Origin: Candidatus Bathyarchaeia archaeon
GTDB lineage: Archaea > Thermoproteota > Bathyarchaeia > Bathyarchaeales > Bathycorpusculaceae
Direction: 5' to 3'
Assembly (NCBI GenBank): GCA_038882955.1
Contig: JAVZNC010000002.1
Location: forward strand, 64,001 to 128,000
DNA length: 64,000 nt
Part shown: in pieces, positions 5,575 to 12,655 of the stretch
Position numbering within the stretch: the first letter of the stretch is position 1
Layout of the letters: each line of letters begins with the position of its first letter
The notes under the pieces: model-generated
The model's input: the letters and a program-made list of their open reading frames with translations, nothing else
What the model was told of the DNA's origin: nothing
Databases searched by the model: none
Translations under genes and position numbers: made by a program

Positions 5575-7878
5575 ATGAATCCAATGGGCATTCGCGAAGC
5601 CTTATCAAAAGAAAGCATCGCTAACGGAATAAAAAGTTTGGGAAAACTGCGCGTCAGAATGAGCCACAGCTCAATAATGACCATCTCAGCCTTGCTGCTC
5701 ATACTATTTGTGGCATTCACCATTCGCATCTTGCCGCTACGCTGGGAAATAGCGCCAGAAAAAAACACATTGCTGCTTTCAGAGTTCGATCCCTACTACC
5801 AATATAGCCTTACAAAATACATGGTGGAAAACGGCTTCTTCGCGCCATACATTCCTCCAGGATGGGTTGACCACCAACGTTGGTACCCAGACGGAATAAA
5901 CATGTCGCAGTCCTACCCTTCTCTAGCAATGACGGCGGCATTCCTTTACAATATGATCTCCATGTTAGGAATAAACATTGACTTGATGAGTTTCTGCGCT
6001 CTTTTCCCTGTAATAATGGGTACACTAGCATGCCTAATAATCTACTTCGTCGGCAAAGACATTGGCGGAACCACCATCGGATTGCTTTCAGCATTGTTTT
6101 TGGCGCTAAGCCCATCTTACATTCAGAGAACATCACTAGGCTTTTTCGACGACGAAACAATAGGCATAGTCGCACTACTCTTGTTTATGTATATGTTCTT
6201 AAAATCCCTTGAAGAGGATAGACCGCTCAACTCTACGATGAAGTACGCCATTGGCTCTGGACTGGCTTTAGGTTATTTCATTTCTGGATGGGGTGCAGCT
6301 TTTTATCCCATCGGGTTAACGGCGCTATTCGTTCTCGTTTTAATCTTGATTAAAAGGTACTCGCAGAGGCTACTATTATCTTACACGGTGACGTTTGGGC
6401 TAGGCTTACTCATAGCAATAAACGTTCCCTATCTTTCACCGAGCTATTTGACGGCGACAGCTATAATTCCAGTCGCTGGAGTATTCGTATTGCTATGTGC
6501 CGCTGAAATTCTGCGCAACATAACATCAACTGGAATGCGTATAACATTTGCTATACTCTTCATTTGCGCTTTAATAGGTGGATTCGCCTTTCTGTGGCAA
6601 TGTGGATATTTAGGAGGTATTGCTGGCAAATTCCTTTCCGTAATCGACCCATTTGCAAGGGCAGAATCTCCGCTTGTGGAATCTGTTGCTGAACACAGAA
6701 TTTCCGCTTGGGGCTCAATATACTACGAGTTTGGAATAGGCATAATATTTTTCATAGCAGGACTATATTTCCTTGTTAGGAACCCAACAAACAAAAACTT
6801 GTTCATAATACTTTTCGGCATAACGTCACTCTATTTTGCCTGTTCAATGGTACGTCTGCTCGTGCTCATGGCTCCAGCCTTCAGCCTAGTGGCAACAAGC
6901 GGCGTATTAGGCGTGCTAAAACCCTTTTACACGCTGTTAAAGGAACCGCCAAAGATAATTACAAAGAGGAAGTATGGTTTAGAGCATGTTGGAAAAGAGT
7001 TCAGCGGAACAGCAATATTCCTAATATTCCTAATACTAATGACAAACTTCGCCTTCTCGCCGCAATCAGGCGGCATGCCAAAAGTTTACAAGCAAGCATA
7101 CACGCCAACAACAATTTCTGCTGGGAGCCTTCCAATAGCGCCCAACGAACCAGTTAAGGAATGGTTGGACATGTTAAGCTGGCTAAGAAGTAATTTAGGA
7201 CCCAAACCAATAGGTGAAAAAGTTGTTTGCAGCTGGTGGGACTATGGCTATTGGCTTTCAATACTTGGCAATGTGACATCGCTCGCGGACAACGCAACAA
7301 TAAACACTACGCAGATAGAGAACATAGGCTTCATATTTATGGCCAACGAAACAGACGCATTGAAAATGCTGAAACTCTACGATGCAAGATACATCCTCGT
7401 TTTTGTGACTATAAGCACTGACGGTGGACTTGCAAATGCTGGCGGGGATGAAGGGAAATGGGTTTGGATGGCGCAAATTTCCGGTGTATCCAGAAGGCGT
7501 TTTATAGATGGCGGCTTTATAGATGAAAATTTGATGTGGACTTCGAGTTTTGAGCAAGTTCGAGCAATGTTTGGCAATTATACTTTAGGGTATGATTGGA
7601 CAGACACAAATGGCAATAACAAAGTGGATGAGGGCGAGCTAATTAATATTAGTGAAGGACAAAATTCGACGATATATAAGTTAATGCATTATGCGCGGGA
7701 AAGATGGCTACAAGAACAGAAAGGCTACTCTCCGACTATTCAGCCGACATACTTTAAGGAAGCTTACATTGCTGGACTGAAAAACGATGGGAGCAAATAT
7801 GGTTATAGCATTATTCCGCTTGTTGCTTTGTATGAAATTGATTGGGAAAAATATTACACGGACTTTCCAAACACATAA
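5575..7878 (+). CDS. aglB: Oligosaccharyltransferase AglB/STT3
   Basis: EFDPYY, GFFDDE, SVAEH, WWDYG, DNAT and DEGKWVWM motifs; many TM helices. Confidence 0.95.
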   Translation: MNPMGIREALSKESIANGIKSLGKLRVRMSHSSIMTISALLLILFVAFTIRILPLRWEIAPEKNTLLLSEFDPYYQYSLTKYMVENGFFAPYIPPGWVDHQRWYPDGINMSQSYPSLAMTAAFLYNMISMLGINIDLMSFCALFPVIMGTLACLIIYFVGKDIGGTTIGLLSALFLALSPSYIQRTSLGFFDDETIGIVALLLFMYMFLKSLEEDRPLNSTMKYAIGSGLALGYFISGWGAAFYPIGLTALFVLVLILIKRYSQRLLLSYTVTFGLGLLIAINVPYLSPSYLTATAIIPVAGVFVLLCAAEILRNITSTGMRITFAILFICALIGGFAFLWQCGYLGGIAGKFLSVIDPFARAESPLVESVAEHRISAWGSIYYEFGIGIIFFIAGLYFLVRNPTNKNLFIILFGITSLYFACSMVRLLVLMAPAFSLVATSGVLGVLKPFYTLLKEPPKIITKRKYGLEHVGKEFSGTAIFLIFLILMTNFAFSPQSGGMPKVYKQAYTPTTISAGSLPIAPNEPVKEWLDMLSWLRSNLGPKPIGEKVVCSWWDYGYWLSILGNVTSLADNATINTTQIENIGFIFMANETDALKMLKLYDARYILVFVTISTDGGLANAGGDEGKWVWMAQISGVSRRRFIDGGFIDENLMWTSSFEQVRAMFGNYTLGYDWTDTNGNNKVDEGELINISEGQNSTIYKLMHYARERWLQEQKGYSPTIQPTYFKEAYIAGLKNDGSKYGYSIIPLVALYEIDWEKYYTDFPNT

Positions 7879-7892
7879 GGAAGCGGTGACTG

Positions 7893-8753
7893 TTGTTTCC
7901 GAAAGTTCCGGACCAGCACAAGCCAAACAAGCCGTTGGTTCCAAACGGCTTAGGCGCAATTTACGTTATAGCTAGTGCCGTATACCTTTTCACTCTTGAA
8001 TATTTTCGTTCTCCAAGCGATAATGTTTCTAAGGCTTTAACTTTGGCTGTCTGCATACTGTTCGGCGGGTTTATGGGTTTGCTCGATGATTGGATGGATT
8101 TGCGTTGGCGCTATAAGGCTTTCTTTCCGTTAATTGCTGCTATACCGCTTGCTTCTTTGGCTATGAGGCTCGGAGTGAGAACTTCAATGACAATTCCTTT
8201 GATAGGAGTTGTTTTAGATTTTGGTTCTGCTTATTTTTTGGTGGTCATTCCGTTAATTGTTACTATAACCACAAACACCGTGAATCAGCTCGGTGGGCTA
8301 AATGGTCTGGAAACGGTTTGTCCAGCCATAGTATTGGTTGGGTTGATGGTTATGTCTGGCGATAATGCTGTTCTCTTGTATGTTCCATTGGCTGTTTGGT
8401 TGATTTTGGCTTTTTTAAATTTTCGAGGCAGAATTTTTGTTGGAAATACTGGGTCTTTCGCCATCGGGATAACTTTGTCGGCTTTTGCAATAATTTCCGA
8501 TTTAAAAATGAGTCTGGTGGTTTGCATCTTACCATATATTTTTAATTCAGCGTTAATCTTGTTGTCATATTTTCTTTTTAGGGTTAAGGCGCATGTTTCT
8601 TTTGATGGAGAAAGACTCGTTTCAGACCATAGAAGAAGCTTGGTTACGCTGATTACTTATAATCGTCCGTTGAGAGAACGCCAAGTGGTGGTTATAGTTT
8701 CGCTTATAGTGGCGCTTTTCACCCTATTTGCTGTTCTTCTCGAGTTTTTATGA
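7893..8753 (+). CDS. aglH: UDP-GlcNAc:dolichyl-phosphate GlcNAc-1-P transferase (GT4/MraY/AglH family)
   Basis: DQHKP, GLLDD, NTVNQLGGLNGLE, FVGNTGS; directly follows aglB. Lacks the usual first TM helix. Confidence 0.75.
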   Translation: MFPKVPDQHKPNKPLVPNGLGAIYVIASAVYLFTLEYFRSPSDNVSKALTLAVCILFGGFMGLLDDWMDLRWRYKAFFPLIAAIPLASLAMRLGVRTSMTIPLIGVVLDFGSAYFLVVIPLIVTITTNTVNQLGGLNGLETVCPAIVLVGLMVMSGDNAVLLYVPLAVWLILAFLNFRGRIFVGNTGSFAIGITLSAFAIISDLKMSLVVCILPYIFNSALILLSYFLFRVKAHVSFDGERLVSDHRRSLVTLITYNRPLRERQVVVIVSLIVALFTLFAVLLEFL

Positions 8754-8888: not shown

Positions 8889-9380
8889 ATTTGCCCAGCA
8901 TTATATGTTCCTAACGTTTCAGTTAAGGTTGAAATTTCAAAATTGTTAGGTGTAAGGCTTGACGTTAAGACTGGTGGGGCTGAAACTATAAATTTTGATG
9001 TTAAGGCAAGGCTTGAGGAGAGAGAGCGTAAAAGCCAGCTTGTCGTTGTTAACTTCAGCCTCGTCCTCTCTACAAAGCCAAGTGTGGTTAAGTTTGAAAT
9101 TGAAGGTGCAGCAACATTAACTGGCAAGGATTCCGAAATAAGCAAGATGTTAGAAGTGGACCCAGAAACAAAAGTGCCATACGTCTTCCACAGGGTTTAC
9201 CAACATGCATTCACAGCCATGTACTTACTGTCGACAATTCTAAACACGCCGCCTCCACCACAAGACTTGCTATTCTCAAATAGGGAGCAAGGACTGCCAA
9301 TCGAAGACGTTAACGTGGAAGTAGCCGAAGCAGCCGCAGACCTTGTTAAGGTTCAAACTGAAACAGAGAGCAAAACTTAA
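8889..9380 (+). CDS. Arcadin-1-like (SecB-like fold) protein
   Basis: Beta-rich N half, then helix and LNTPPPP, as recalled for arcadin-1. Frame is open from 8874; first canonical start is TTG 8943, but ATT 8889 follows GAGG. Confidence 0.5.
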   Translation: MCPALYVPNVSVKVEISKLLGVRLDVKTGGAETINFDVKARLEERERKSQLVVVNFSLVLSTKPSVVKFEIEGAATLTGKDSEISKMLEVDPETKVPYVFHRVYQHAFTAMYLLSTILNTPPPPQDLLFSNREQGLPIEDVNVEVAEAAADLVKVQTETESKT

Positions 9381-9401
9381 TAGCGTTAGAGAATTTTCCA
9401 T

Positions 9402-9469
9402 ATGCAAATGGCGGGTGAGTGGACCTCCACCCGTTCCGCCACATAAACCCCGGTGTAGGAGGTGGAAAA
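9402..9469 (+). promoter_or_regulatory. Structured 5' leader of queT (candidate riboswitch/attenuator)
   Basis: GC-rich leader with alternative pairings; anti-SD ACCTCC 9423-9428 is complementary to SD GGAGGT 9458-9463. Confidence 0.5.
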
Positions 9470-9958
9470 GTGAAATTTGGTAGTAAAGAGGCGGTGTTGA
9501 CTGCGGTTTTCGCTGGGCTTTATGCTGCTTGTGTGGTTCTCCTTGCGCCTATAAGCTTTGGAGTTTACCAAGTTAGAGTTGCTGATGCTCTGCTGCCGTT
9601 GTCCATCATATTTGGGTTGCCGAGTGCCATAGGCTTAAGCCTTGGATGTTTAGTCGCGAATTTCTATGGCAGTTTAGGAATAATCGACATTGTTGGTGGA
9701 ACAATTGCAAACTTTGTAGCGTGTACGTTGGCTTGGTACGTTGGCAAAGGCGGATTTGTGCGAAGGTTATTTGGAAGTTTTGTTGAAACGCTGGCTATAA
9801 CGGTGATTGTTGGAGGCTACTTGTCGCTAATATTCAATGTTCCAGTTGAAATTGGCTTGCTCGGCATATTCATAGGCTCTGTCGTAGCGATAAATGTTCT
9901 TGGCTTTGCGTTGGAAGAGGGCTTATATCGAAGCGGCATATGGAAAGGTGTCAAGTAA
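9470..9958 (+). CDS. queT: QueT-family transporter (ECF S-component, preQ0/preQ1-type)
   Basis: AGLYAA...PISFGVYQVRVADAL..GCLVAN...DIVGGT pattern; GTG 9470 follows strong SD GGAGGTGG. Confidence 0.85.
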   Translation: MKFGSKEAVLTAVFAGLYAACVVLLAPISFGVYQVRVADALLPLSIIFGLPSAIGLSLGCLVANFYGSLGIIDIVGGTIANFVACTLAWYVGKGGFVRRLFGSFVETLAITVIVGGYLSLIFNVPVEIGLLGIFIGSVVAINVLGFALEEGLYRSGIWKGVK

Positions 9959-9973
9959 CATACGACAAAATCT

Positions 9974-12655
9974 TTACATGAAGCGTTCCAGTTTTGTCAG
10001 CCCTATTATTTCATCAAAGTCTAGACCCAATGCGTCCAGAACTTGGTCAAACGTTGAGTGGAGATACGCGATGTACTTGTCAACGTCTATTTCGTTGTTT
10101 GTCGCTAGCTCTACCGGTTTGACGTGTGGTTCTTTAACTACTTTGACGAAGCTTATGAGGTCTCCAGCTTTAAGCTCTAATCCTCCCTCTTTTAGGATTC
10201 TTGCCGCTTTGACGTGTTGTGGCGTTGTTTTTGTGTAGCGTTCTGGTTCTTCACCTAGCACTACATTGAAGGCTAGTTCTTCTAGGCTTGTCCATTCTCG
10301 TCTTTTTAGGCGCATGTAGCAGTCGCGGATTATTTCACATGTGTCTTTTTTGGCTTTTTCAAAGTCTGCTGGCGTTTTCACTGTGGCTAGGCGTTCCTTC
10401 ATTCTGTCAAAAGCCTTCTTGATGAACAGTGGTATGTGCCTTTTCTTGCCCGTTAATCCCTTAACGTCGACGCTTCCGTCCTCTAAAACTCCGAGATAAT
10501 TCTTTTTGCGTGAGCTGAAAACGATGTATCTGTAGATTTTGTCCACGTCCAAGCTCATTTTTAATTCGCTTTCAGCCCACTTGGACAGTTCTTCGATCTG
10601 CTCTTTTGACGGGTTTTTTAAGAATATGCTGTCCGTGTCGCCGTAAAGCACCTGGATGTTAAGTTCCTTGGCTTTGTTGATTATCTGTGTTATTGAGTGT
10701 CGCCCTATGGCTGCTGTTGCTTCAGCGACTGGTGGACAATAGAGGTCAAAGGTTTCGGCTCCGAAGACGCCGTAGCTTGCATTCAAAATAACCTTTAAGG
10801 CGCCTTGGATGGGATTGTACCAGCCTTTAAGCTCCTTTGAGAGGCTTTTGTCTTTTGACCTTGGTTTGTACCAGCGCACGCGCAGGTCCCTAAGTGAGCC
10901 TATTAGGAGGCTTTCTAATGCCCGTTTTTTGGTGCAAACCCAGTGTGGCGTGTCTGGGATTAGGTTGCTGCGACATTCTGGATGTTGGCATAAGATTGAT
11001 TGGTAGCCCAGGTTCCAAACTTTTATTATTGATGGGTATAGGCTTTGGAAGTCCAAGTCTGCCACGTTGAAGTGGACGCCTGGCACTGGTTCAACGACTA
11101 TTGCACCTTTGTATTTTTTGCCTTTGATTATGGCTTTTGTGGCGGTTTTGCCTTTCACGGCTAGGATTTCCTCTGCGTTTGGGATGAGCATGTTTCTTCT
11201 GCGGTGCTCTCTGTGTAGGAAATTCCTTATCCAACGTGAAACTCCTTGGCGGCTCACGTCTTCCATTGGCATGCTGCTTATCCTAGCCAAAACCAGGATG
11301 AGTTTCATTACTAGCTCGTCTTCGAAGCTTGTAAGTTTGAAGGTTATTTCCGCGTCTCTAAAGCAGTATTTTGCAAGTTCCGTGTAAGTTAATTCGCCTA
11401 AGTTCTTTTCTAGGCGTATTTTTTCCATGCCAATTAGGGCTTTGCCAACATCGTCGAGGGTTACGTCCCTATAACGGTTGTTGAAGGCGTAAATTTGGAT
11501 TGAACGATTGAAGAAGAACTTGTAAAGGTCTATGTGAACGCCATATTTTAGAAGGCAGACGCGCTTGCCAACATCTATTGGAATTTCGTCCCTTCTGAAA
11601 CCGAATTTTTCTGCTCTGTGCACCAAATAACGTAGGTCAAAATCATCCCCGTTAAAAGTTATGACGAAGGGATAATCCCACAAAACTTCAAAAATAGCTT
11701 TTATAAGCTTCTCTTCCGAGTCAAAATATTCTAGGTTTACGTCAGCGGGCAAATGTTCGGTTCCTTCTCGGACTCCCTCACGCTCCAAAAGCAACACTTT
11801 CATTAGCCCATCAGAACCGTAAAGTGAAGCGCACACGATTGGGTATTCTGCCTCGCGGGCATCTGGCATACGTGTTGGAATTGGTGAGTAAACTTCTATG
11901 TCCAACGCTACGCGGCGAAACTTGGGAGCGGGATACTCTAGAAGCCTCGCCCACTGTTCAATGTACTGTAACTCCTCTTCTGTTGCGCCTTCAAAGAGGC
12001 TCATTATCTGCTTTACAGTTTTTTCTGATTCATTCAAACTTTTCATGACAAGTTTGCCGTTTCTAATTTCGTAGAGCATTCCAGGCCACAAGTCATTGTC
12101 GTAAATGTATGACTGGTAATACTTTATTTTTGATTCCCAAACCTTGATTTGTTCTTGGGCTATTGGCGTGTCGGCCACTTTTGGGAAGTCTTCTGGGATT
12201 ATGTCTCTAATGCAGCCTTTTGGTCGTCCTCCAATCGCTAGGGGGTCTTTAGCCACAATCTTTGTTACTTTCACAGTCTTATTCAATAACGGGTCAAATT
12301 TTTCCACGATTTCAAAATGGTCGAAGCCTTGATGTTGCCTTAGGTGGTCTATTTTTTCGAGTTCTAATGGTGAAAGGTTTGTGAGGCAATAAGGCTTATG
12401 CCCGCTATTGTCGTACCAAAAGTAGATTTTGCCCGAGACTGGCTCGTAAAGTTTGATTAGGACTTTTCCAGCTTTTCCATCATACGTGGCTGAAACAAAG
12501 TATGATGATGGCAGGTTTTCTGGCGCCAACGGCGGGAATGTTCGTTTTTCTTTTTCCTTTTTTATGGTTTCTGTGAAGGGTAGGGCTTCTGCTTCTTTTT
12601 CTTTTAATGTTTCGGTTTTTGGTTTGTAGAAGTCTTCTAGACGTTTCTGCGCCAT
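9974..12655 (-). CDS. polB1: Family B DNA polymerase PolB1
   Basis: Exo motifs DIE and FNGDDFD, DFQSLYPS, KVILNASYG, YGDTDS; B1-type N-terminus; no intein. Confidence 0.95.
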   Translation of the reverse strand: MAQKRLEDFYKPKTETLKEKEAEALPFTETIKKEKEKRTFPPLAPENLPSSYFVSATYDGKAGKVLIKLYEPVSGKIYFWYDNSGHKPYCLTNLSPLELEKIDHLRQHQGFDHFEIVEKFDPLLNKTVKVTKIVAKDPLAIGGRPKGCIRDIIPEDFPKVADTPIAQEQIKVWESKIKYYQSYIYDNDLWPGMLYEIRNGKLVMKSLNESEKTVKQIMSLFEGATEEELQYIEQWARLLEYPAPKFRRVALDIEVYSPIPTRMPDAREAEYPIVCASLYGSDGLMKVLLLEREGVREGTEHLPADVNLEYFDSEEKLIKAIFEVLWDYPFVITFNGDDFDLRYLVHRAEKFGFRRDEIPIDVGKRVCLLKYGVHIDLYKFFFNRSIQIYAFNNRYRDVTLDDVGKALIGMEKIRLEKNLGELTYTELAKYCFRDAEITFKLTSFEDELVMKLILVLARISSMPMEDVSRQGVSRWIRNFLHREHRRRNMLIPNAEEILAVKGKTATKAIIKGKKYKGAIVVEPVPGVHFNVADLDFQSLYPSIIKVWNLGYQSILCQHPECRSNLIPDTPHWVCTKKRALESLLIGSLRDLRVRWYKPRSKDKSLSKELKGWYNPIQGALKVILNASYGVFGAETFDLYCPPVAEATAAIGRHSITQIINKAKELNIQVLYGDTDSIFLKNPSKEQIEELSKWAESELKMSLDVDKIYRYIVFSSRKKNYLGVLEDGSVDVKGLTGKKRHIPLFIKKAFDRMKERLATVKTPADFEKAKKDTCEIIRDCYMRLKRREWTSLEELAFNVVLGEEPERYTKTTPQHVKAARILKEGGLELKAGDLISFVKVVKEPHVKPVELATNNEIDVDKYIAYLHSTFDQVLDALGLDFDEIIGLTKLERFM

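Follow-up and report, generated by a model that had tools for sequence, protein, structure and literature searches.

The untranslated leader of a queT gene in a Bathyarchaeia genome almost certainly contains a real, widespread, and previously undescribed cis-regulatory RNA, and we consider it probable that this RNA acts as a riboswitch whose ligand is preQ0 or a closely related compound. The element occupies positions 9409 to 9464 of the window (the whole stretch of 64,000 nucleotides analyzed here), is approximately 56 nt long, and is composed of three helices, which we term P1, S2, and P2 (Table 1). P1 and S2 cross each other in the topology of an H-type pseudoknot: the anti-SD strand is located in the loop of P1, which has 5 to 6 bp, and the SD region with which it pairs lies 20 to 30 nt further 3'. 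S2 joins ACCTCC (9423 to 9428) and CCCG (9430 to 9433) to CGG (9451 to 9453), G9455, and GGAGGT (9458 to 9463), and its 10 pairs bury the Shine-Dalgarno (SD) sequence GGAGGTG, which lies 5 nt 5' of the queT GTG start codon and is complementary to the 3' end of the 16S rRNA of the same genome. P2 is a small hairpin of GTGG (9419 to 9422) with CCAC (9427 to 9430) that leaves the SD free; its 3' strand lies inside the anti-SD strand, and because C9427, C9428, and C9430 are used by both P2 and S2, the two helices are mutually exclusive. Comparison of leader sequences favors, with some reservation, the view that the element is a compact, pseudoknotted candidate riboswitch of an undescribed class that would turn off translation of queT.

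Leader, gene, and predicted transcript

The protein encoded directly downstream of the leader falls in the Pfam QueT family, bearing out the gene call of an earlier note on this DNA, and its N terminus aligns with those of homologs that share the same start position. Upstream of the leader are a 767-aa membrane protein, which we take to resemble AglB/STT3 oligosaccharyltransferases, a family-4 glycosyltransferase, and a 145-aa open reading frame (ORF) without an assigned family, and queT is followed by a convergent gene for an 893-aa protein, presumably resembling a family B DNA polymerase.

A putative archaeal TATA box precedes the leader. In the regions that precede 119 leaders, hexamers resembling TATA are concentrated at −35 to −29 relative to the first G of P1, and the limited set of six-base patterns used to represent TATA found a match between −45 and −18 in 56 of these leaders. 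Given the usual distance between TATA box and start site in archaeal promoters, transcription is predicted to start near 9404 to 9409, a few bases 5' of P1 and not downstream of 9430, and the whole element would therefore be transcribed.

Table 1. Features of the queT leader and its surroundings, in window positions
Feature	Positions	Strand	Basis or remarks
767-aa membrane protein	5575-7878		WWDYGYW motif
Family-4 glycosyltransferase	7893-8753		Pfam PF00953
145-aa ORF	8943-9380		No Pfam or NCBIfam family; stop codon overlaps predicted queT TATA box
Putative archaeal TATA box, CTTAATAG	9376-9383	+	Starts at −34; overlaps stop of ORF 8943-9380
P1, 5' strand, TGGCGG	9409-9414	+	Pairs with 9436-9441
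Joining bases, GTGA	9415-9418	+	Unpaired in both supported folds; column frequencies, alignment A2
P2 hairpin, 5' strand, GTGG ("anti-anti-SD")	9419-9422	+	Pairs with 9427-9430
Anti-SD strand, ACCTCC-A-CCCG (5' strand of S2)	9423-9433	+	Covariation
TT linking S2 to P1	9434-9435	+	Conserved in 94 and 100 of 100 leaders
P1, 3' strand, CCGCCA	9436-9441	+	Covariation
A-rich linker plus CC	9442-9450	+	Conservation in 100 leaders
S2, 3' strand, including SD GGAGGTG (9458-9464)	9451-9464	+	Covariation; SD matches 16S rRNA tail
queT coding sequence	9470-9958	+	GTG start, 162 aa, stop included; Pfam PF06177 (QueT), E value 4.7e-26
893-aa protein, convergent to queT	9974-12655	−	YGDTDS motif

Covariation and the competing fold

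We evaluated base pairing in alignment A2, which holds 100 leaders fitted to a covariance model (R1) that encodes P1 and P2 only; A2 is thus unbiased toward S2, which is absent from the model. P1 and S2 taken together are 91.2% paired in A2 and contain 140 double-change cells compared to 62 in shuffled alignments, a value that none of 500 shuffles reached. The earlier note had proposed both helices, P1 as a pseudoknot of TGGCGG with CCGCCA and S2 as an OFF stem that buries the SD, and had pointed to covariation among orthologous leaders as the way to judge them; both are present in the window as it drew them, and both covary. Here and below, the tallies are of sequences from related MAGs and not of independent events. 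P1 pair 9410:9440 (n = 100) occurs as GC in 62 leaders, AU in 22, GU in 7, CG in 2, and UA in 2, and pair 9414:9436 (n = 100) as GC in 85 and CG in 15. S2 alone is 91.1% paired in A2 with 73 double-change cells compared to 32.5 in shuffles (reached by 0 of 500), and slid controls give 41 to 75% pairing. It covaries as well in a structure-blind MAFFT alignment, with 85.2% pairing and 77 double-change cells compared to 33.5 (0 of 500 shuffles). Individual S2 pairs change in a compensatory manner (9430:9455 is CG in 60 leaders and UA in 12; 9428:9458 is CG in 79 and UA in 6, both in A2), an insertion that turns the anti-SD CCTCC into CCTCCC is matched by a change of the SD from GGAGG to GGGAGG, and one clade of the second phylum described below pairs CCTCGCA with TGCGAGG in place of the CCTCCCA/TGGGAGG type. 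In an alignment-free test, the loop of each leader bound its own tail at −15.9 kcal/mol and foreign tails at −13.7 kcal/mol, and 0 of 5,000 permutations were as low. Folding of a single 110-nt stretch of the window was no better than chance (z = −1.25; 23 of 200 shuffles did as well).

The earlier note had also described two mutually exclusive folds, and the exclusivity holds, but the competitor of S2 is the P2 hairpin and not the ON helix that the note had put forward. That helix, GGCGGGTG (9410 to 9417) with CACCCGTT (9428 to 9435), is present in the window and can pair in 92% of cells, but it has a single double-change cell, a result equaled by 323 of 500 shuffles, and it is broken in all 15 leaders in which G9414 is replaced by C, a change that is compensated within P1; we therefore reject it as an alternative fold. 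P2, by comparison, has 22 double-change cells in A2 compared to 4.5 in shuffles (0 of 500 reach this value), with pair 9420:9429 occurring as UA in 71 leaders, GC in 10, and CG in 3, and on the MAFFT-only alignment, where its pairing is 88.5%, it has 21 double-change cells compared to 5.4 (again 0 of 500). The RNAalifold consensus recovers P1 together with P2. In a minority of leaders P2 cannot form (at each pair, 3 to 15 of the 100 cells lack pairing, as where GTAT or GTAA replaces GTGG), so perhaps not all leaders switch between two states. Nearest-neighbor energies, calculated with no pseudoknot term, are −15.1 kcal/mol for P1 plus P2, −8.8 kcal/mol for P1, and −10.8 kcal/mol for S2 alone, which by this estimate places the two states (P1 plus P2 and the pseudoknot) in the same energy range.

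According to the A2 column frequencies, conservation in 94 to 100 of the 100 leaders is seen at about a dozen unpaired positions, including G9415 (99 leaders), T9416 (100), T9434 (94), T9435 (100), and A9443, A9445 to A9447, C9449, and C9450 (99 to 100 each). By analogy with other H-type pseudoknots, these invariant bases would converge on the P1/S2 junction and the minor groove of P1, and we propose that the A-rich linker (9442 to 9450) sits in this groove and lines the pocket. No covariation signal that would indicate additional tertiary pairs was obtained among the invariant unpaired bases, as their columns do not vary. We also considered whether the GTGA joint might be a k-turn or an L7Ae site; this is not supported, with no k-turn-like tandem GA arrangement visible by eye.

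These patterns bear on whether the element needs a ligand at all. Sequestration of the SD alone does not require one, the window DNA occurs in hot-spring metagenomes such that temperature sensing is conceivable, and P2 is missing in some leaders, but a structure that constitutively damps queT translation, serves as an RNA thermometer, or stabilizes the mRNA at its 5' end is a very unlikely explanation: in thermometers and simple occluding stems one would not expect some dozen unpaired bases to stay invariant from phylum to phylum, nor two competing helices both to covary, and the motif accompanies a single gene family. A ligand-sensing RNA is our preferred reading.

Distribution, gene association, and pathway context

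A protein search recovered QueT in 54 of 61 related genomes, counting that of the window. In the best 30 queT loci, whose proteins are 32 to 83% identical to the window QueT (its own copy excepted), a nearly invariant leader of 55 to 65 nt stands directly before the start codon in 27 cases, and the motif is present in 29; at two of the 30 loci it heads an operon in which the matched queT follows approximately 1.2 kb downstream. L009 is the one locus of these 30 that lacks the motif, and R1 finds nothing in that genome; its queT (62% identical) has a different GC-rich leader with a hairpin of its own (L009:1370-1500). In the genome from which the window derives, R1 gives two matches, each 4 nt before a queT start, one of them at window positions 9407 to 9465. 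The second copy (G000:C19:6475-6854) consists of a leader and a queT gene that is 76% identical over 105 aa and runs off the end of its short contig; it could be a paralog or could belong to a co-binned relative, given the 6% contamination of this assembly.

Model R1, which was built from 35 leaders, matched 93 of the 151 genomes in a sample of the class to which the window belongs and 28 of 151 in a sample of its phylum, where families outside the class were matched at 9/15, 3/3, and 2/2. It also matched 19 of 151 genomes in a second phylum, that of a MAG titled Promethearchaeota. A loose two-block DNA pattern run on genome contigs returned at least 120 loci, mostly chance matches in GC-rich bacteria; R1 scored six of 100 such loci (L031 to L130) at 54 to 80 bits and the other 94 at 21.6 bits or less, and a further set (L131 to L150), screened by a stricter regular expression only, had no match. 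Among the matches listed, the named MAGs with the motif were Bathyarchaeia or Bathyarchaeota (five) and Promethearchaeota (one). Single matches in two other samples of 151 genomes, from the phylum of a MAG titled Methanomicrobiales (26 bits) and from the bacterial phylum of a MAG titled Oscillospiraceae (28 bits), lie inside coding genes and were taken as chance. The queT leader is thus kept across the class, further classes of the phylum, and a second phylum, which is the conservation among orthologous leaders that the earlier note had called for, and among the genomes searched the motif appears to be confined to archaea. QueT (PF06177) was detected in only one of 14 named control genomes, that of Lactococcus lactis, with no match in the four model archaea included, and the usual archaeal models are therefore unusable for study of this element without transplanting it.

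The genes that follow the motif point consistently to one pathway. Taking the first plausible ORF after the SD as the downstream gene, we could call one for 94 of the 100 R1 matches, and 89 of these 94 are QueT according to Pfam, as are all 18 of those called in the second phylum. One further ORF looks like a mis-called frame, and the remaining four encode membrane proteins, each about 230 aa long, without a Pfam or NCBIfam family (L188:166-861, L202:169-870, L206:169-870, and L218:110-796, the last on the minus strand). These proteins have no BLASTP similarity to the window QueT and may represent an unrecognized transporter family for the same substrate; their leaders carry a GC-to-CG swap in P1. 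At L019:274-2025, and likewise at L018, the motif heads a queT-like gene, queC (PF06508, 209.5 bits), and a second queT, and in that lineage it would therefore also control a gene of preQ0 biosynthesis. A low-scoring subgroup (L246 to L250 and L261; 23 to 33 bits) has QueT downstream, an A-rich sequence in place of the GG that follows CCCC, and a changed GTGAG joint, and may represent a variant whose specificity has changed.

In archaea, preQ0 is inserted into tRNA by the archaeal-type tRNA-guanine transglycosylase (arcTGT), a step of the archaeosine pathway. The genome of the window, which is 95.6% complete with 6.1% contamination, encodes arcTGT (285 bits), but the search for QueC returned only weak PP-loop matches (22.5 bits, against a cutoff of 150.3), and that for PTPS/QueD returned none. 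Since arcTGT is present and neither QueC nor QueD is recognizable in a genome of this completeness, the organism probably depends on imported 7-deazaguanine, and its gene content suggests that it is a preQ0 auxotroph. The use of preQ0 by archaea through arcTGT and the lack of a recognizable QueC or QueD in this genome also make preQ0 the most likely ligand; responsiveness to preQ0 or preQ1 is what the gene association and pathway context would lead one to expect.

The same observations make it unlikely that the riboswitch senses some other compound, either another purine or 7-deazapurine derivative or an unrelated metabolite carried by archaeal QueT-like S-components. A different ligand would accommodate the four downstream genes without a known family and would fit the low-scoring subgroup as a variant with altered specificity. 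It sits poorly with the prevalence of QueT among downstream ORFs (89/94 overall and 18/18 in the second phylum), with the inclusion of queC in the same operon in one lineage, with a genome that has arcTGT but neither QueC nor QueD, and with the fact that preQ1 is described as the ligand of each of the three riboswitch classes that occur on bacterial queT (PMC11625349).

A second question is whether a protein, not a small molecule, acts on the leader. No conserved partner gene adjoins the motif, and the element recurs in two phyla with very different gene neighborhoods. A compact pseudoknot with an A-rich linker is moreover typical of small-molecule aptamers, and inspection by eye showed no k-turn-like tandem GA arrangement. 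Control of the SD by a translational repressor, arcTGT, or another tRNA-modification protein is on these grounds quite unlikely, even though the invariant single-stranded bases would also suit a protein site and one paper on arcTGT speculates that this enzyme may act on RNAs besides tRNA (PMC4770233). Direct sensing of a 7-deazaguanine by the RNA is the reading that we carry forward.

Relation to known riboswitches and proposed mechanism

The leader matches no family in Rfam 15. A cmscan search of window positions 9200 to 9700 gave no matches at E values up to 10, including to preQ1-I (RF00522), preQ1-II (RF01054), and preQ1-III (RF02680), in agreement with the earlier note, and the same collection gave nothing at the motif in 20 diverse homologous loci at E values up to 1. 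In the openly accessible full texts searched, we found neither a description of this element nor any riboswitch for archaeal queT, preQ0, or preQ1; archaeal hits could be listed in the supplements of papers on preQ1 riboswitch distribution.

Among the riboswitches nearest to the leader is preQ1-I, a very small aptamer (about 34 nt) whose second stem has only a few base pairs. The queT leader differs from it in its length (about 56 nt), in its second stem (about 10 bp), in an internal hairpin that competes with this stem, in its set of invariant bases, in its lack of a match to the RF00522 covariance model, in its occurrence only in archaea among the genomes searched, and in its likely ligand, which we expect to be preQ0 rather than preQ1. 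Both RNAs fold as an H-type pseudoknot in which P1 is short and its 3' strand is followed by an A-rich stretch, the 3' tail of preQ1-I is described as pairing into the P1 loop and taking in SD bases, and preQ1-I exerts on queT and other queuosine-precursor genes the kind of translational OFF control that we propose for the leader (PMC11625349); this shared topology is evidence of likeness only and not of membership. We regard it as extremely improbable that the leader, instead of forming its own class, is a far-diverged homolog of one of the bacterial preQ1 classes, of which preQ1-I would be the most plausible. The shared topology, gene association, and regulatory logic (PMC11625349) would be explained by such descent, but none of the three preQ1 models matches the window or the 20 homologs even at the permissive thresholds given above, the size of the element and of its second stem is at odds with preQ1-I, and the sole match among the 151 genomes of the bacterial phylum is a chance hit inside a coding gene. 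A class separate from preQ1-I is thus the reading retained below.

Bacterial queT genes are found under preQ1-I, -II, and -III riboswitches, all three of which sense preQ1, and the available portions of a 2024 review describe these three classes without mention of archaea (PMC11625349). PreQ1-II resembles the archaeal leader in lying upstream of queT (COG4708) and in sequestering the SD fully in a pseudoknot stem, but it is described as an HLout pseudoknot with four pairing regions (P1 to P4) that is limited to Bacillota (PMC11625349), whereas the archaeal leader has 9 unpaired nt between the 3' strand of P1 and the SD strand with no embedded hairpin, has archaeal hosts, and does not match the RF01054 model. 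PreQ1-III shares the association with queT and an anti-SD:SD pairing as expression platform, but is about 100 nt long with five pairing regions and a platform helix far from the pocket (PMC11625349); the archaeal leader has three helices and fits an overlapping aptamer and platform into about 56 nt, and the RF02680 model does not match. As for riboswitches already known in archaea, a 2017 survey reports TPP and fluoride classes and, rarely, FMN, Mg2+-I, and guanidine-II (PMC5473149). These are likewise cis-acting sensors of metabolites or ions in leaders, but they are common to bacteria, where they are more frequent (PMC5473149), and none of these families matches the queT leader. In silico, the leader combines the generic features of a riboswitch, namely, a covarying 5'-leader structure, association with genes of one pathway, and an expression platform coupled to the fold.

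We propose that when little precursor is available, P2 would hold the anti-SD and leave the SD free, and that when enough is present, a 7-deazaguanine would bind at the P1/S2 junction, where it would be held by conserved C, U, and A residues, and stabilize the pseudoknot over P2. The stabilized pseudoknot would hide the SD and exclude the ribosome, such that synthesis of the importer would stop. In this scheme we infer both the direction of the switch, with ligand favoring S2, and the identity of the ligand.

More tentatively, and as a possibility to which we would not yet commit, the element may be the first riboswitch class confined to Archaea and a fourth, structurally independent sensor of 7-deazaguanine precursors, tuned to preQ0 rather than preQ1 and present in most Bathyarchaeia as well as in some of the other Thermoproteota and some Asgard archaea. 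If the class does span these groups, it either predates the split of their lineages or moved together with queT. Archaea have been reported to contain very few riboswitch classes, all common to bacteria, in the portions available of the 2017 survey (PMC5473149), and a widespread class restricted to archaea would change this picture. It would also constitute a fourth independent RNA fold for the family of queuosine and archaeosine precursors, and a compact aptamer of about 56 nt that may be selective for the nitrile of preQ0 would be useful in structural and synthetic-biology work. For the organisms themselves, the leader would be evidence, drawn directly from genomes, of 7-deazaguanine salvage and its regulation in many uncultured Bathyarchaeia and Asgard archaea, which bears on the nutritional dependencies of these archaea and on efforts to cultivate them.
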